NCBI GenBank assembly: GCA_024276275.1
Contig: JAJRXM010000072.1
Coordinates: 8,416 to 72,415 of the forward strand
DNA length: 64,000 nucleotides
Source of the DNA: Candidatus Zixiibacteriota bacterium
GTDB taxonomy: Bacteria > Zixibacteria > MSB-5A5 > GN15 > FEB-12
Reading direction: 5' to 3'
Positions 2,222 through 50,672 of the stretch are shown piece by piece. The notes beneath the pieces were generated by a model. The model ran no database searches. It saw only the letters and a program-made list of their open reading frames with translations, and was not told the DNA's origin. How positions within the stretch are numbered: position 1 is the first letter of the stretch; each line of letters begins with the position of its first letter. The translations under genes were made by a program, and so were the position numbers.

Positions 2222-2958
2222 TTAAAAAATTGTTGATCCTATTGAACGACCGCCGTCAACATGTAAAATCTGACCGTTAATAAACTGAGCCTCTTCAGAT
2301 GCTAAAAATGCTACTGCCGATGCGACATCTTCCGGTTCACCAGCTTGTTTTGACGGTTGTTTGTCTAAGAGTTTTTGAAATATCTCTTTTGGTAATGCAT
2401 TGGTCATATCTGTTTTTATAAGTCCCGGAGCAACAGCATTGACCGTTATATTTTTTGGAGCCAGTTCAAGTGCCAAGACTCTGGTCATACTTACAAGCCC
2501 ACCCTTCGAGGCAGAGTAGTTTGACTGCCCCGGATTACCGAGCCACGCTCGGGAGGCAATATTTATTATACGTCCACTTTTTTGTTCTCTCATGATAGGA
2601 GCTACTTCTTTGCAAAGAAGCCAGGAGCCTTTGAGATTTACTTGAATAACATCGTCGAACTGCTCTTCTGTCATTTTCCATATAACATTGTCTTTTATAA
2701 TACCGGCATTGTTTACGAGTATATCAATTTTCTTTTTTTCTTCAATAATCATTGAGATAAAAGCTTGTACATCATCCCGCTTGGAGATATCGCCCTCAAA
2801 ACAGCATAGGAATTTCCCGGATCAATTTTAAAAGATTCAGGTATAGATTTATCAATGATATACACAAAAGTACCGTCTTTAACAAATCGTTTTGTAATTG
2901 CTAGACCTATCCCCCTCATGCCGCCTGTTACAATAGCTATTTTTCCGTCAAATGACAT
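2222..2958 (-). pseudogene. short-chain dehydrogenase/reductase (FabG / 3-hydroxyacyl-CoA dehydrogenase-like) split by a 1-nt frameshift
   Basis: ORF 2749-2958 carries TGGMRGIG; ORF 2222-2752 carries NNAG and YSASK. Adding one base in the A4 run at 2798-2801 rejoins them as ...[19 protein letters not shown]... Confidence 0.8.
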
Positions 2959-19137: not shown

Positions 19138-20515
19138 TTAATCATCACTATCATCAGTAGTTCGTAATATTGTGCCATAGCTTCCAACTGCTGTTCCATT
19201 GTTGGCATCAATGTAACTGACACCATAAAGGTAGTTTGTTGTATAACTTGTTTGAGTCTGCCAAGATGCACCGCCATTTGAAGTTCGTAAGATTGTACCA
19301 CTCGCTCCAACTACTACCCCATCGTTAGTATCAATGAAACTGATTCCATAAAGTGATGAAAATAAACCACTTGATTGCCTCACCCAGTTTGCTCCACCAT
19401 CTGTTGTCCGTAAGATTGTTCCACCGGCCCCAACTGCTGTCCCATTGTTGGCATCAATAGAGCTGACTCCTTGGAGATGACTCGTTGTGTTACTTGTTTG
19501 ACTCACCCAGGTCACCCCACCATCAGTTGTTCGTAAGATTGTACCACCGGTTCCAACTGCTATCCCAATGTTGGCATTAATGAAACTGATTCCTTGGAGA
19601 TGACTCGTTGTGCCACTTGTTTGACTCTGCCAGGATGCACCGCCATTTGAAGTTCGTAAGATTGTACCACTCGCTCCAACTGCTGTCCCATTGTTGGTAT
19701 CAATAAAACTGACTCCTTGGAGATGACTCGTTGTTCCACTTGTTTGACTCCCCCAGGTTGCTCCACCATCTTTTGTTCGTAAGATTGTGCCATTCGCTCC
19801 AACTGCTACCCCATTGTTGGCATCAATGAAGCTGACTCCATTAAGTGAGGAAGCTGTACCACTTGTTTGCCTCAGCCAGGTTGCTCCACCATTAGTAGTT
19901 CGTAATATTGTGCCATTCGCTCCAACTACTGCCCCAATATTAGTATCAATGAAACTGGCTCCATTAAGTGAGGAAGTAGTAACCCCTGGTTGACTCAACA
20001 AGATTGCTCCACTATCAGTAATTCGTAAGATTGTGCCATTATCTCCTACCGCTGTACCATGATTAGCATCAATAAAACTAACACCAAAGAGCCAATTAGT
20101 TATGCCACTTGATTGACTCACCCAGGTTGCTCCACCATCTGTAGTTCGTAAGACTTGTACCTGTTAATCCAACTGCTACCCCATTGTTGGCACCAAAAAA
20201 GCTGACTCCCATGAGAGCAATAGTTGTGCCACTTGATTGACTCACCCAGGTTGCTCCACCATCTGTTGTTCGTAAGATTGTACCACCGGTTCCAACTGCT
20301 ATCCCAATGTTGGCATCAATGAAACTGACATCCCTGAGATGATGGCCTTGCGGTAGAGGATTCTGCCAGATCCATTCGGAAGGTCCTGTTTGAACAGTTC
20401 CCGGATTAGTAGGATTGGATTTTGAACAAGATAAAGACAATAATATTAACAGTATTATTACGAAAGACAAATTTGACTTATAAAAATTATGCGAAAAAAA
20501 CATATTTTCTCCCAA
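19138..20515 (-). pseudogene. BNR/Ycf48-like beta-propeller lipoprotein with about ten 41-aa blades, frameshifted
   Basis: Lipobox LLSLSC. Repeated GxxGTILRTTDGGxTWxxQ(T/S)SG units have a 123-bp DNA period. ORFs 20096-20515 and 19138-20121 overlap in different frames; segment 20150-20176 has one base more than the equivalent segment of other repeats. Likely start is the ATG at 20503 behind GGGAGA. Confidence 0.8.
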
Positions 20516-25558: not shown

Positions 25559-26953
25559 CTACTTCTTTTTCGGCTGATGCACCGACATATTATGAACATC
25601 ATGTGCCGCTTCCATCACCGATTCGGAAATCACAGGATGCCCAAAAATTATCGAACCTAATTGTTTAGCGGTCAACCCCTGATTTATAGCTACTACGGCA
25701 GAATGAATTATTTCAGTTGCATGGACACCGACCGCATGCACACCCAACACTTTGTCTGTTTTTTTATCAGCTATAACTTTGACTTCACCGGCTATTTCAT
25801 TTTCAGCATGTGCTTTTCCTAAAGCACGGAGAGGAAATTTTCCGATAGCAAGTTCATATTTTTCCGATGCTTCCGCCTCACGCATACCGACTGAGGCTAC
25901 CTCGGGATGAGTAAAAATAACCGATGGAACCCCTAGATAGTTTTTCTTAACTTTTTCACCCAAAGCATTATCAACAGCTATAGTACCGTCATGTGTAGCA
26001 GTATAAGCCAGCAATATTTCACCTCGAACATCACCGATTGCAAATATATTCTTTATATTTGTACGCATATCCGCAGTAGTTTTAATCGAACCATTCTTGT
26101 TCATATTAATACCGATTTTTTCAAGACCGATATCCTCCGTATTGAAAGCCCGACCGATTGATACAAGCACTTGATTTACATCGACCGTTTTACCGCCGGA
26201 TAAGTGAGCAACAACTCCGTCAGAACCCGGAATCAGTTTTTCTACTTTTGTTTTGGTATCTAAACTAATTTTCATTTTCTTAAGTTCACGCTCGAATAAC
26301 TTTGATGAGTCAACATCTTCCAACGGCAAAGCATGGTCCAGCATTTCAACCATTGTTACTTCAACATCCAGCATCGAAAGCATACATGCCCATTCACAAC
26401 CGATAACACCTGCCCCAATAATCAAAATAGATTTTGGAAGGTTTTCCAGTTGAAGTAAATGGTCGGATGTAAGAATTCGTTTACCGTCGATTGGAAAACT
26501 TGGAATAGATGCTGCTCGTGAGCCGGTAGCAACTATGATATTATCTGTCTTAATTTTTGTCTCTTGGCCGTCTTCATCAGTAACAGTAACTTCGTTTTTA
26601 CCTGTTATTTTACCTGCTCCGATAATATGGTCAACACCGTGAGATTTAAAAAGTCCACCGATACCGCCTACTAAACCGTTCACTATCTTGTCTTTTCTGG
26701 CAAGCATTCTATTCCAATCATACACAGGCGGTGTTGTGAGATTGACTCCAAATGCAGCAGCATTTTTCATTTTATTATACTGTTCGGCAGATGCTATCAA
26801 CGCTTTTGACGTAATACATCCCTTATTTAGACATACACCTCCAAGCTTATCCATTTCGACAACAGCAACTTTTGCACCCTTTAAGGCAGCACGAATACCC
26901 GCGGTATAACCTCCGGGTCCGCCACCGATGATTACTATATTATATTTAGCTAT
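25559..26953 (-). CDS. lpd: dihydrolipoyl dehydrogenase; FAD-binding N-terminus lies upstream of the first ATG, so the start must be ATA or ATC
   Basis: Redox-active disulfide GGVCLNKGCITSKAL. 33 in-frame codons upstream of the ORF-track ATG encode IAKYNIVIIGGGPGGYTAGIRAALKGAKVAVVE. An in-frame TAA at 26963-26965 closes the frame; AAGGAG RBS at 26961-26966. Confidence 0.85.
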   Translation of the reverse strand: MAKYNIVIIGGGPGGYTAGIRAALKGAKVAVVEMDKLGGVCLNKGCITSKALIASAEQYNKMKNAAAFGVNLTTPPVYDWNRMLARKDKIVNGLVGGIGGLFKSHGVDHIIGAGKITGKNEVTVTDEDGQETKIKTDNIIVATGSRAASIPSFPIDGKRILTSDHLLQLENLPKSILIIGAGVIGCEWACMLSMLDVEVTMVEMLDHALPLEDVDSSKLFERELKKMKISLDTKTKVEKLIPGSDGVVAHLSGGKTVDVNQVLVSIGRAFNTEDIGLEKIGINMNKNGSIKTTADMRTNIKNIFAIGDVRGEILLAYTATHDGTIAVDNALGEKVKKNYLGVPSVIFTHPEVASVGMREAEASEKYELAIGKFPLRALGKAHAENEIAGEVKVIADKKTDKVLGVHAVGVHATEIIHSAVVAINQGLTAKQLGSIIFGHPVISESVMEAAHDVHNMSVHQPKKK

Positions 26954-26989
26954 GATACAACTCCTTTATATACTTTTATCTGACGACCT

Positions 26990-27018
26990 AATGTATACCT
27001 AAATACGTTTTATGGCAA
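26990..27018 (-). promoter_or_regulatory. sigma-70-type promoter for lpd (TTGCCA-N17-TACATT)
   Basis: Minus strand TTGCCA at 27018-27013 and TACATT at 26995-26990. Confidence 0.45.
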
Positions 27019-32915: not shown

Positions 32916-35591
32916 TTACCAACCCAAGATTTGTTCGAGATTTTTATTCAGCTTTTCGATTCGTTCCTGATAGTCCTCTTTTTTAGCTTTTTCTTTAGCA
33001 ATAACATCATCGGGAGCATTTGCTAAAAAGTCAGGATTAGCAAGTTTACGAGAAACTTTTTCAAGTTGATTTTTCAAATTGGTTAAATCTTTTTCAAGTC
33101 GTGATTTTTCAACTTCAATATCTATAAGTCCTTCGAGCGGAATAAATATCTCGGCACCTGAAATAATTGCCGATGCGGCCAGTTGAGGTTTTTGTGTATC
33201 TGTACCAACAAAAAGATTTTCAACTTTTATTAAAGAACGGAAATAGCCTATATGATTTTCTAAAAGTTTGGCAAACTCAGCATCTTTTACTTTTATATAC
33301 AAGTCGGATTTTTTACCCGGAGGAACATTCAACTCAGCTCGTACCGAACGAACGGCAGTTACAACTGCCTGAATTTGTTCAAGCGATTCTTCTAGCTGTT
33401 CATCAATAAAAGAACCGTCAGACTTTGTCCATTCAGCGAACAAAATAGTATCTGAAGAACCCTCAATCATCGTGTGCAGTTCTTTATAAATATTTTCAGT
33501 TACAAACGGTGTAAATGGATGCATCAATATTAAAATCTGATTGAGAACATAAGCCGCAACATTGAGTGAGCCTTCTCGTATCTCTTACCCTTGTTTATCC
33601 GGTTTCATAAGTTCAACATACCAGGAACAGAAGTCATTCCATACAAAGTTATAAACTGTCTTTGAGGCAGTCGATAGTCGATATTCATCCATAGATTTAT
33701 TAACCGACTCAACCGCCCGTTGTAATCTTGAAAGAATCCATCGGTCAAAAATAACTAAATCATCAGCATTTACAGAATTAAGGTCTGGTTTTTTATCGCC
33801 TATCCGCATCATTACAAATCGCGATACCTGGTGTAACTTATTTATAAAATTCCTACCGACTTCAAAAGTATTTTTAGAAAGCCATGGGTCTTGACCGTCA
33901 GGTGTTGAAAGGACCATAGAAATTCTTAAAGCATCGGCACCGTATTTATCAATAATTTCTAATGGATCAATTCCGTTACCGAGAGATTTTGACATCTTCA
34001 CACCGTTGGCATCACGAACCGTTCCGTGAATATAGACATCGGTAAACGGAAGCCCGCCCACAAATTCGTATCCTGCCATTACCATTCTGGCAACCCACAG
34101 AAAAATAATTTCTGAACCGGTACTCAGAACTTTTGTCGGATAAAACGCCTTTAGGTCTTCTTCATTGTTCGGCCAGCCCAATGTAGAGAACGGCCATAGC
34201 CATGAGGAAAACCAAGTGTCTAAAACATCTTCATCTTGTACTAAAGACTCAGGGTCGTAACCTTTACATTGTTCGGCTGTCGGTCTGCCGACAGAAATAA
34301 ACATAGTACCGTCTTCAGCATACCAAACCGGAATACGATGTCCCCACCAAAGTTGACGGGAGATACACCAATCACGGATATTTTCCATCCAATGCAGATA
34401 TGTTTTTGACCAGTAGTCAGGATGGAATTTTATTTCGCCGTTTTTAACAGCATCAATAGCCGGTTTGGCAAGTTCGGACATTTTTACAAACCATTGGTCA
34501 GAAAGATACGGCTCTACAATATTATGACATCTATAACAGGTTCCTGCTGAAAGGTCGTAATCTTCGATTTTATCCAGATGACCTTTTTCTTCTAATTCTT
34601 TCACAAGCTGTTTCCGGCAGTCATATCTTTTGAGCCCTTTGAATTTTCCGCCGTTCTCGTTGATAGTACCGTCGATATTTAGAATATTGATTTCTTCCAA
34701 ATCATGTCGCCGTCCGATTTCAAAATCGTTAGGATCATGAGCAGGAGTTACTTTAACAACACCGGTACCAAATTCAGGGTCTACATAGCTATCGGCAACA
34801 ATCGGAATTTCACGTTCTAAAATCGGAAGTATAACTTTTTTACCAACATACTTTTTAAATCTTGAATCTTTAGGTGAAACCGCCAAAGCAGTATCGCCAA
34901 GCATTGTTTCCGGTCTTGTTGTAGCAACGGTAAGGTAATCGTCGGAGCCTTTTAGCTTATATTTTATATACCATAAATGGCTTTTGGAATCTTCATGTTC
35001 GACTTCATCATCAGATAAAGATGTCTGGCACGAGATACACCAATTTACAATACGATGCCCTCGGTATATGTAACCTTTTTCATACAAATGTTTGAATACC
35101 TGTTCAACAGCAGAAGTAAGACCGTCATCAAGTGTATATGCTGTGCGACTCCAATCGCAAGAACATCCCATTTTTTCCAGTTGGTGTAAAATTTTACCTT
35201 TATTTAATTCTGCCCAATTTTGGGTACGTTCAACAAACTTTTCACGTCCGATTTCACGACGAGTGGAACCTTCCTGTATTAATTGTTTTTCAACAATAAC
35301 CTGTGTAGCAATACCGGTATGGTCGACACCGGGAATCCAGGTAGTTTCATACCCCTGCATGCGATGTTTTCGTATGAGGATATCCTGAATAGTATTATTT
35401 AAGGCGTGTCCTAAATGTAAAACCGATGTAACATTCGGAGGAGGTATAACTAATGAATACGGATTTTTTTTCGACTTATTATCTGCCGTGAAGTAATTAT
35501 TATCGAGCCAGTCCTGATATATTTTTGGTTCTATTTCAGATGCTTGATAGGCACCTGATTTAATTTCTTTATTTTCGTTTTGCTTGCTCAT
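32916..35591 (-). pseudogene. valS: valyl-tRNA synthetase interrupted by one in-frame TAA
   Basis: ORF 33585-35591 has the class I motifs LHLGHALN and KMSKS. ORF 32916-33527 holds the C-terminal helical/coiled-coil part. Both are in the same frame. TAA at 33585-33587 is followed by 19 sense codons (EIREGSLNVAAYVLNQILIL) leading into the conserved MHPFTPFVTE. Confidence 0.9.
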
Positions 35592-35659: not shown

Positions 35660-35688
35660 AATGTAGGCGGATTATCCGATTTTGTCAA
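35660..35688 (-). promoter_or_regulatory. sigma-70-type promoter for valS (TTGACA-N17-TACATT)
   Basis: Minus strand TTGACA at 35688-35683 and TACATT at 35665-35660. Confidence 0.5.
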
Positions 35689-44030: not shown

Positions 44031-45426
44031 ATTTCCTATCTTTATTTATCAACGGCAGCCTAATTTCAAAACAACCGCCACTTTCCTCATTATGAAAAGT
44101 TATCGACCCATTATGCTTTTTTATTATACCGTAACAGACAGAAAGTCCGAGACCGGTACCTTTTGAAGGTTCTTTTGTTGTGAAAAACGGTTCAAATATT
44201 CTTGGAACCAGTTCAGGAGGAATACCCGGACCGGTATCAGAAAAACAAATAGAGATTTCATCACCGACCGTTGTAATAGCTATCCGTACCTGCCCGCCGT
44301 CAGGCATAGCGTCATAGGAGTTGATTATGAGATTTAAAAAGACCTGTTTTATGCCTTCAGGGGATATTTCTATTTCAGGAATATTCGGGTCAAATCGTTT
44401 TTCAATGATGACCTTATTTTTTTCAAACTGCCTGCTCATGAGAGAAATAACCGATGTCGCCAGTTTGGCAATGTCAACTCTTTGGAATTCAAATCCTCGG
44501 GGGCGATGAAAATCAAGAAGTTCAGAAACAATTTTTGCTATTCTATCTATTTCGTTATCTACAATATCTAAATACTCAATTGATTTTTTGTTATCCACTA
44601 CTAATTTATTCGTTAAGAGTAAATAGTTTTTTATAATTCCTAACGGGTTATTGATTTCATGGGCAACTTTTGCTGACATTTCTCCCAAAGCCGCCAATCG
44701 TTCAGAATGAACTAATTGTTGTTGAGTTTCACGCAGTTGTTTGGTCGCTTTTTTTTCTGCTTCGTATAGCCATGTATTTTCAATTGCTACAGAGATTTGG
44801 TTACCTAAAATTGAAAGAAACTCCAGGTCATCCTCGGTAAATTCTCTTGAGGATATTTTATCGCTGATAATAAATAATCCGCTTAACTCCGATTGATACA
44901 TAAGCGGAATAATTAAACCGTTTTCAAAAAATGAGAGAATTTTTTTTTCTTTCTTATTAGCAGTAGTTTCCAGAAGTTCAATTATTTTTGACGGTCTGTT
45001 TATTTTTGCCAGATTCAAAAGCATTTTTGAACCGTCTTCAAAAACATTCTCAACTGAAGGAAATTTACCCGAGCCTTTAAATTTTGTTAAGATAAATTTC
45101 TTATCATCAGAATGAGTTTAAAGATAGAAAGCTGCTTTCATAGAACCGACTTGGGCAAGTGATGTAAAAATAAATGTGTCCAGAAGTTGTTGATAGTCCA
45201 AAAGAGTGTTAAAATTACGACTGATTTCAAAAATTGTATACAAATCAAAAATCTTACGCTTATGTACTCTGTTCAGTTCCGTTAGTGAGCGAACTTTACT
45301 CTCCATTGCTTTAATCGTTTCTTGCAGTTCTGCTTTAGTTGGAGTTTTAGAGACTGACAGATTTTCTACCGTTTTCTTTTTATTCGTATTCTTTTTTGAA
45401 TTAGCCGATTTCTTATTTTGTTTCAT
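44014..45426 (-). pseudogene. GAF-domain sensor histidine kinase interrupted by one in-frame TAA
   Basis: ORF 45118-45426 (coiled coil plus start of a GAF domain) and ORF 44014-45024 (rest of GAF, VAHEINNPLGII, DTGPGI ... GTGLGLSV) share one frame. TAA at 45118-45120 is followed by 31 sense codons (THSDDKKFILTKFKGSGKFPSVENVFEDGSK). Confidence 0.8.
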
Positions 45427-49118: not shown

Positions 49119-50672
49119 TTATTTCTTAGGTTTTAATACCGCAACAGGTACGACCATTTCCTCTAGTGATAGACCGCCATGCTGAAATGAATTATGAAAA
49201 TATCTGACCATTTCATTATAGTTATTCGGATAGACAAAATAATAATCTTCTTTTGCTATAATATAGGTTGTTGCGAGTCCTAATTTCGGTAGCCGCCACT
49301 CTTCAGGATTTTTTATTAAAATAGAATCTTTTGGATCAGATTTCAAATTATCACCATACTTATATCGTAAATTTGTAGATGTTGACTTTTTACCATGAGC
49401 TTTGGTTCCTCTTTTACAAAGAGTGGAACCGTGGTCTGATGTCATTACAATAGTATAATCTTCTGAGGCAAATGCTTTTAGTATTGAAAATAAAGACGAG
49501 TGTATAAACCATGATTTCATCAACCCTCGAAAAGCAGCTTCTGTACCTGCGATTTCTTTTAGAATCACATTATTAGAACGTCCATGTACAAGTATATCTA
49601 AAAAGTTAAAAACAATTGAAACAAGAGGAGTTCCAAACAGGTCAGAAACTTTTTTATAAAGCACTTCCCCTTCGGTATTCACATTTATTTTTAAATATTT
49701 CGGTGGACGTTCTGTGCGAACTCCATGACGGGCTAAATTATCGGCAATAAATTTTTCTTCAAATCGATTTAATGACCCTTCGTCTGATTCATTATATGTA
49801 TTATGGTAAGTTTGATGTATTTCATCAGGGAAAAGTCCTGAAAAAATAGCATTTCGGGCAAAAGGTGTCGCTGTCGGCAGTAGTGAAAAATAACTATGTC
49901 TCTGTATAGAATAAAATTCAGCAATCAACGGTTCTATCAACATCCATTGGTCAAGCCTCATACAGTCAACAACAACAAATAAAACTTTCTTTCCTTTTTT
50001 CATTTCAGGTACAACAAATTTTTCTACAATATCAGTTGAGACCATCGGTCGGTCATCACTTCCCAGCCACTCTTTATAGTTTTTTTCAATATATTTGGTA
50101 AATTCGATATTCCATTCTTTGTGGGTACCTTCAAGCATCTCCCTGATACCTTGGTCTTGGTTTTCATCAACTTCAAGATTCCATTCAGCTAGAATTTGGG
50201 CAGCATCCAGCCAATCGTTTGGTTCCAAAGAACCGTAAAGTTTCTGATTAAACTGATTGATATCGGAGATATATCTTTTCATCGACGAGGAGCTGATAAT
50301 TTTTTTTGAATCAAGCTGTCTTTTTATCACCATTAATATCTGTGAAGGGTTCACCGGTTTTACTAAATAGTCATCTATTTTTTGACCAAGAGCATCCTCC
50401 ATAAGTGATTCTTCTTCGGACTTTGTAACCATGACAACCGGAAGATGCGGCGAGATATCTTTTATTTCTTCAAGAGTTGTCAAACCGTCCTTGCCGGGCA
50501 TCATTTCATCAAGTAAAATTAAATCAAATTGTTATTTTGAGACCATTTCGACGGCATCATCACCGGATATAGCTGTTTTTAAAGTGTATCCCTTTTTTTC
50601 AAGGAATAAAATATGCGGTTTTAACGAATCTATTTCATCGTCAACCCATAATATTTTTTGAGATTTATCCAT
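49119..50672 (-). pseudogene. PorX-like response regulator (REC + PglZ/alkaline-phosphatase-superfamily domain) interrupted by one in-frame TAA
   Basis: An ATG at 50672 opens MDKSQKILWVDDEIDSLKPHILFLEKKGYTLKTAISGDDAVEMVSK. TAA at 50532-50534 follows, then the same frame continues QFDLILLDEMMPGKDG... into ORF 49119-50504. C-terminal PglZ-type MTSDHGS. Total is about 517 codons. Confidence 0.8.

Follow-up and report, generated by a model that had tools for sequence, protein, structure and literature searches.

An in-frame TAA in the only valS gene of a Zixibacteria genome most likely marks damaged or mis-assembled DNA and not new stop-codon decoding

Stop codons are read as amino acids in several genetic codes: UGA stands for glycine in Gracilibacteria and SR1 (table 25), and UAR stands for glutamate in peritrichs and in Blastocrithidia (tables 30 and 31). 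Interrupted genes are also abundant in the decaying, pseudogene-rich genomes of Mycobacterium leprae and Sodalis, and class I synthetases can be split into two pieces, as is the LeuRS of Aquifex aeolicus. Costello and colleagues are said to have described, in 2013, library artefacts of oxidised guanine (8-oxoG) that appear as G-to-T or C-to-A changes, are of low frequency and prefer a CCG context. Assembly is a further source of broken genes. In the parts of Cooley & Wright 2024 (PMC11017572) on which we draw, MEGAHIT ranked first of four assemblers in the number of pseudogenes and also of unique pseudogenes, and an excess of internal stops went with assembly error.

The valS gene studied here lies in a stretch of 64,000 nucleotides (the window) of contig JAJRXM010000072.1, in a Zixibacteria MAG (G000; 3.39 Mb in 100 contigs, 95.4% complete, 0.32% contamination). 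It occupies 32916-35591 on the minus strand and is one co-linear gene interrupted by a single in-frame TAA. Its parts, and the sequence upstream of it, are as follows.

33588..35591, minus strand: N-terminal 668 codons of valS, with the Rossmann catalytic fold, the editing domain and the first third of the anticodon-binding domain (open reading frame and Pfam)
33585..33587, minus strand: in-frame TAA, codon 669; GAA (Glu) in the relatives G002, G003 and G004 (alignment)
33528..33584, minus strand: 19 codons 3' of the TAA, free of ATG, GTG and TTG, that encode the conserved helix EIREGSLNVAAYVLNQIL (alignment)
32916..33527, minus strand: C-terminal part of valS, with the remainder of Anticodon_1, the coiled-coil tRNA-binding arm and a normal TAA terminator (open reading frame and Pfam)
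35660..35688, minus strand: promoter-like TTGACA-N17-TACATT upstream of valS, a consensus match only (motif match)

The 668-aa frame (33585-35591, minus strand) and the 203-aa frame (32916-33527, minus strand) are in the same reading frame, parted only by the TAA at 33585-33587, as the original prediction had stated. The local sequence is GGG TAA GAG, and reading through the TAA would give an 891-aa product. Translation and Pfam bore out the further claim that the longer frame carries both class I signatures, LHLGHALN (HIGH-type) and KMSKS, together with the editing domain: it matched tRNA-synt_1 (PF00133, E = 1e-137), the LeuRS editing-domain family (PF13603) and positions 1-51 of the Anticodon_1 profile. 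The shorter frame, described earlier as a helical bundle with a coiled coil, matched Anticodon_1 at positions 74-147 and Val_tRNA-synt_C (PF10458), in agreement with that description. Since the Anticodon_1 profile is split between the two pieces, the TAA interrupts the anticodon-binding domain itself. The catalytic-core features of a ValRS (HIGH, KMSKS, tRNA-synt_1 and the inserted editing domain) are all present; the anticodon-binding domain and the coiled-coil arm come on one chain only upon readthrough of the TAA, and under table 11 the chain ends at codon 669.

Some details of the earlier description had to be changed. The TAA had been placed in a variable linker; its own column is indeed variable, but the next 19 codons (33528-33584) are conserved, the helix being almost unchanged in the closest relatives, and the break falls within Anticodon_1. 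An internal ATG had been listed at 33527, but the codon there is TTG, and the ATG comes next, at 33524. The absence of a ribosome-binding site before the internal start stood: no Shine-Dalgarno-like motif was seen by eye upstream of this TTG or ATG. The hexamers for which the valS promoter had been called intact do occur (35688-35660), yet shuffled sequence yields matches of this kind just as often (9 found vs 9.5 expected).

A second valS elsewhere in the genome had been raised as a possibility; a search of the whole assembly returned a single valS. The other seven of its eight matches, at 27-33% identity, fell on three loci whose open frames measure 1069, 827 and 487 aa; we read these as IleRS-, LeuRS- and MetRS-like genes. 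A search of G000 and 30 relatives, 31 genomes in all, found the gene unbroken in 28. At the column of the TAA, 11-12 relatives have E, G, M, V or Q; the codon is GAA (Glu) in G002, G003 and G004, which are the nearest genomes, and the variety (G, M, V, Q, E) is found further out. The TAA is thus a private, first-base G-to-T change from GAA. Across the phylum (285 genomes), valS stops occurred only in G000, G003 and G010 among the 150 matches listed; a further 143 matches fell outside that list. The stops of G003 (TAG) and G010 (TAA) both lie at one other column, which is Lys in most relatives. This sharing of a column is unlike random error and is a point against an artefact.

Apart from the stop, the G000 gene had four singleton changes at invariant columns, all of them conservative. 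Downstream of the TAA, 29 synonymous and 12 non-synonymous lineage-specific changes were counted, as in relatives. On these counts, the C-terminal part of the gene shows no decay and remains under purifying selection. No copy from the same species was found in the metagenome and genome collections, where the best matches had 70% and 88% identity over 240 aa. From the one sequencing run that was listed (5% of sampled words), only short contigs of relatives were recovered, and none of 98 reached an identity of at least 99%. One 217-nt record of the run, about 93% identical, spans the TAA site; the site is 21-23 nt from the end of the record, where differences are unlisted.

Further lesions were found in the window, the two in-frame TAA codons among them being in accord with the original prediction of more such stops in its genes.

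50532..50534, minus strand: second in-frame TAA, in the receiver domain of a response-regulator/PglZ gene; GAA (Glu) in the sister genome G004 (Pfam and comparison)
45118..45120, minus strand: third in-frame TAA, in the GAF domain of a histidine kinase; TCA (Ser) in G004 (Pfam and comparison)
2796..2805, minus strand: apparent frameshift at a T4 run in a short-chain dehydrogenase gene (by eye, in G000 alone)

For the genome-wide count, all long frames were compared by tblastn with 1.26 Mb of G004. Matches of at least 65% identity and at least 200 residues were kept, and the outer 30 positions of each were dropped. These homology-based counts replaced two screens for split genes: a codon-score screen, which was noisy and missed valS, and a screen requiring both pieces to have at least 100 codons, which did list it. 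In-frame stops numbered 45 per 218,904 aligned interior codons for G000 against 5 per 211,663 for G004; the counts were 12 per 63,746 codons for G003 and 1 per 22,473 for G010. Frameshift-like junctions numbered 32 for G000 (22 of them net -1), 9 for G004 and 11 for the sample of G003, and across the genomes stops and frameshifts rose and fell together. All 14 of the G000 junctions inspected at the base level were net one-base deletions in G000, one of them in a gene recognised by motif as that of EF-G. It had been supposed that TAA itself was the phenomenon; the stops are in fact a mixture of 33 TAA, 4 TAG and 8 TGA, and they are accompanied by about 32 frameshift junctions. Scaled up to 3.4 Mb, the load would be some 200 stops and some 150 one-base deletions. 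The valS TAA is one of a few to several hundred scattered single-base lesions, with nothing special about it.

Placement of the G000 stops was even, both within genes (mean relative position of 0.51; counts by quintile 8/9/11/10/7) and across contigs (p = 0.81). They fell on conserved residues of core genes, namely NADH dehydrogenase subunits, ATP synthase alpha and a FabF-like gene, and a LeuRS-like gene at C48:47822 also carries one; these names, like that of EF-G, are from recognised motifs and not from a family search. From the even placement and the conserved core residues struck, it follows that selection has not sorted the lesions. Genome-wide, the changes specific to G000 were 3,619 synonymous and 482 non-synonymous, as in the sister genomes, so that dN/dS was normal. 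In a three-way set of 27,515 codons, G000 had 10 specific stops and G003 had 2 (G004 had 0 by construction), and none of the 10 was shared with G003 or G004.

The residues found in G004 at the 37 TAA and TAG codons of G000 were Glu (18), Ser (6), Lys (5), Gln (3), Asp (2) and Asn, Ala and Leu (1 each), with no Tyr; at the 8 TGA codons, they were Gly (5), Ser (2) and Phe (1). Every one of the Glu and Gly cases was a first-base G-to-T change. From counts of mutational opportunity, the Glu share was predicted to be 19% under equal rates or 14% under the third-position spectrum of the lineage, so that the excess had p = 5e-5 and 3.5e-7, respectively; for Gly at TGA, the excess had p of about 0.007 (equal rates). 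The substitution spectrum of the lineage itself predicts 27% Gln at TAA and TAG. Sites with Gln, Tyr, Trp or Arg made up only 3 of the 45 stops, all three being Gln. In the Ser cases that were looked at, the codon was preceded by T, which makes GAA on the opposite strand. Eighteen stops (valS and 17 of the 22 that were found first) were compared over the nearest 20 nt and shared no sequence motif, and by eye no methylation or sequence motif was seen flanking the stops.

The same base change was then followed outside stop codons. Asp-to-Tyr changes (GAY to TAY) numbered 19 forward vs 16 reverse, with 34 expected, beside the 18 Glu-to-stop changes (p = 0.004). Radical missense changes (BLOSUM62 of -3 or below) in the three-way codons were 47 in G000, 53 in G003 and 45 in G004. 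In the nuo region, compared over six genomes, G000 had three stops at invariant columns, but changes of the kinds D>Y, G>V and G>C were absent. With neither a matching Asp-to-Tyr excess nor a radical missense excess, context-free G-to-T error or damage was rejected. The rejection, and stops that come without a parallel missense excess, count against an artefact as well. At third positions, G:C-to-T:A changes on the lineage were 417 in G000 vs 240 in G003 and 326 in G004. In frame 2, a comparison of purine triplets counted 37 changes forward and 31 in reverse; with +8 expected, it had no power. It may be noted that unpolarised asymmetries between G000 and G004 (for example, H>Y, 155 vs 82) are confounded by drift in composition and were for that reason given little weight.

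TAA remains the main terminator of this genome. It ends 829 of 1,288 long open reading frames, and reading it through fuses neighbouring genes. Both release factors are present: prfA scores 493 bits and has no stops, and prfB scores 507 bits and carries a TGA, which we take to be the usual frameshift site, and a TAG. Among the ARAGORN and Rfam hits, no tRNA had a UUA or CUA anticodon, and UCA was found only in tRNA-SeC; the MAG is without several standard tRNAs. A tRNA-Glu anticodon arm with YTA was found in 0 of 108 genomes of the family, a search in which the native arm itself was found in only 3 of 5 genomes of the genus. The neutral expectation for nonsense changes on the branch, over the aligned codons, was about 11,972, and 45 (about 0.4%) were observed; Glu-to-stop changes were at about 1% of their neutral expectation. 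Hence the stops are either very young or not heritable, and an established reassignment of stop codons is excluded. The usual marks of reassignment are wanting in other ways: TAA has not ceased to terminate, no release factor is lost, and in place of numerous shared sites of one residue there are 18 Glu among 37, all of them private. Nor, at the level of sequence, does the pattern resemble programmed readthrough, as the relatives have sense codons at the valS site and the 18 stops compared share no nearby motif. An index-level look at the literature on Zixibacteria found nothing on recoding in the phylum. A tolerance of stops could at most be very recent, and it would leave the frameshifts unexplained.

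The assembly itself carries a signature. At the contig ends of G000, overlaps measure exactly 141 nt (36 directed ones, making about 18 pairs) or 120-131 nt, and we read the 141-nt overlaps as those of an iterative de Bruijn assembly of short reads with k up to 141, of the MEGAHIT type. The exact overlaps led us to reject long-read error as an origin. Loss of the genes for 8-oxoG repair was also rejected: fpg is unbroken and the score of the MutY-like gene is like that in the relatives G003 and G004, so that there is no sign of a mutator by loss of repair. As is typical of spurious pseudogenes, lesions are well above those of near relatives, and stops occur together with frameshifts. Genuine pseudogenes look different, in that here selection is not relaxed downstream and the gene is single-copy.

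We therefore lean, with somewhat better than even confidence, towards the reading that the lesions do not belong to the working genome of living cells and come from damaged template DNA and/or consensus error of a MEGAHIT-type assembler. The valS TAA, although present in the record, is most likely a product of damaged or mis-assembled DNA and not of new TAA decoding. valS would then be an ordinary, single-copy, full-length gene, and the cell would make a normal ValRS with Glu at residue 669. Young, unselected lesions would enter by way of the damaged template and/or the consensus errors of short-read assembly. We infer that the G-to-T process would favour the G at the 5' end of a purine triplet (GAA, GAG, GGA, GGG). 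If it has this preference, stops should outnumber missense changes as they do; of these GRR codons in frame 1, 91% become a stop on G to T. A high-contiguity assembly at k = 141 implies good depth, and random read errors should not reach its consensus. With good depth, a technical origin needs an extra assumption: few template molecules, duplicates, or a path error of the assembler.

The same contiguity at k = 141 suggests majority alleles over read noise, and so it also bears on the next reading, which we think unlikely but worth keeping in view: the sampled DNA truly carries the lesions as alleles, either sheltered by intact copies (polyploidy or co-assembled strains) or belonging to a recent mutator clone under oxidative damage. 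Such alleles would be private and young, as the lesions are; one-base deletions dominate, as in spontaneous mutation, and the raised third-position G:C-to-T:A count speaks for this reading too. However, both sheltering and a mutator burst predict more radical missense changes as well, and no rise was seen. The intact fpg, the MutY-like score in line with relatives and the contamination of 0.32% also tell against it. Moreover, were the cell haploid, the stops in valS and leuS together with the frameshift in the EF-G-like gene would not leave it viable.

Recent nonsense suppression, by a Glu-inserting ochre/amber tRNA and a Gly-inserting opal tRNA, would render GAR-to-TAR and GGA-to-TGA changes almost silent and would yield a full-length ValRS with Glu 669. 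It accounts directly for Glu at 18 of 37 TAA/TAG codons and Gly at 5 of 8 TGA codons, and for the rarity of the Gln, Tyr, Trp and Arg sites that near-cognate readthrough or the lineage spectrum would favour. Stops in essential genes, at invariant Glu residues and evenly spread along genes, the flat count of radical missense changes and continued purifying selection downstream of the valS stop all fit it, and with several standard tRNAs missing from the MAG, a suppressor could sit in unbinned DNA. Against it, the tRNA hits included no UUA or CUA anticodon, and UCA only in tRNA-SeC, and the search of the family found no YTA-bearing tRNA-Glu arm; both release factors and the continued use of TAA as the main terminator also stand against it. 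Glu-to-stop changes at about 1% of neutrality, and 0 of 10 three-way stops shared, speak in the same direction. Two separate suppressors would be required, and the 32 frameshift junctions, that of the EF-G-like gene included, would remain unexplained. We regard suppression as quite improbable, and are more sceptical still of a population at the onset of ambiguous decoding, in which unbinned tRNAs insert Glu at UAA/UAG and Gly at UGA, and stop mutations of Glu and Gly codons drift into essential genes, while these codons still mostly terminate.

To a genuine valS pseudogene, or a functional enzyme of a 668-aa catalytic piece and a restarted C piece, we give almost no credence, in spite of two long, well-formed frames and the split class I synthetases known elsewhere: there is no second valS and no decay downstream, the two other broken genes are broken elsewhere, and a two-piece ValRS is unlikely, as had been argued from the start, because the break is within Anticodon_1, 19 conserved codons are lost before the restart and no relative is split.

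If the preferred reading, a technical origin, is true, the case is a data-quality warning, with a lesion in about 1 in 10 genes of the MAG by extrapolation. As this genome is the species representative, its split genes should not be taken as biology. The combination of stops at Glu and Gly codons, one-base deletions and normal dN/dS could serve to flag such MAGs. If suppression is true instead, ambiguous decoding of stop codons across a bacterial genome would here be met in nature for the first time, as an analogue of a Blastocrithidia-type code at its onset.

Among known systems, the residues at the in-frame stops of G000 match the UAR = Glu and UGA = Gly codes. Unlike in those codes, termination is here mainly by TAA, the genome has both RF1 and RF2, the hits include no cognate tRNA, the stops are private and frameshifts occur. 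The decaying genomes of M. leprae and Sodalis are alike in their wealth of nonsense and frameshift lesions; in G000, the lesions strike essential genes present in a single copy, dN/dS is normal and the lesions are not sorted by position or gene class. With the 8-oxoG artefacts, G000 shares the dominance of G-to-T, but its changes are at the level of the consensus and prefer GAA, GAG and GGA. The assembly-derived pseudogenes of PMC11017572 resemble the present lesions in being raised against a near relative, in combining stops with frameshifts, in their association with a MEGAHIT-type assembly and in striking essential genes; they differ in coming from isolates, the parts of that study on which we draw give no substitution spectrum, and the stops found here, biased towards Glu and Gly codons and free of a missense excess, are unlike simple random error.

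In the lesion-rich source genome (G000), the valyl-tRNA synthetase gene is not the only synthetase gene that carries an in-frame stop. A LeuRS-like gene (named from its motif), which lies outside the window, contains an in-frame TAA at G000:C48:47822, within the motif GFVNWCP*DKTVLAN, and is a second essential synthetase gene with a stop in G000. Among the relatives, valS alignment column 42 holds the sole valS stop of both L011 (G003, TAG) and L015 (G010, TAA), the valS loci of two MAGs from different genera. This column sits in an AAA AAR run and is Lys in most relatives; it is unlikely that the two stops share it by chance alone.

Frame changes were also observed. A gene whose motif identifies it as EF-G switches frame at G000:C43:427-451, about 100 codons from the end of the gene, with a net change of -1. 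In the window, PSII_BNR was matched by two overlapping ORFs in different frames (19138-20515, minus strand), probably a further frameshift lesion. The neighbouring genes at G000:C73:25713 and 27069, each of about 450-500 codons, have the same 45-nt stop context and look like a tandem duplication.

For the dihydrolipoyl-dehydrogenase-like gene (window 25559-27010, minus strand), the sequence suggests a non-canonical or mutated start, because no ATG, GTG or TTG precedes the GGGPGG motif and the open frame, beginning ...RSCIIAKYNIVIIGGG, directly follows a stop.

At G000:C92:15220 and C79:9224, Cys codons of the sister genome G004 are aligned with in-frame TGA. G000 possesses a tRNA-SeC, and these two positions are likely to be selenocysteine sites rather than lesions.

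When 27,515 codons aligned between G000, G003 and G004 were compared, Thr>Lys was enriched among the G000-specific replacements (16 vs 4 and 5), as was Asp>Glu (59 vs 33 and 35). C>A changes at third positions numbered 228 for G000, against 105 and 142. The G000 lineage is drifting to A-rich codons.

Two unusual tRNA genes were noted. The tRNA-Leu(UAG)-like gene at G000:C97:8676-8751 (76 nt), whose position 33 is A and whose acceptor stem is mismatched, is probably a degenerate or mobile-element tRNA. The other, of 89 nt with anticodon UAU (locus L348, G000:C18:28694-28782), was searched for in 30 relatives and not found there. It has a long variable arm and an acceptor stem of 8 pairs, as drawn by ARAGORN, and presumably resembles the 'allo-tRNAs' known from metagenomes.
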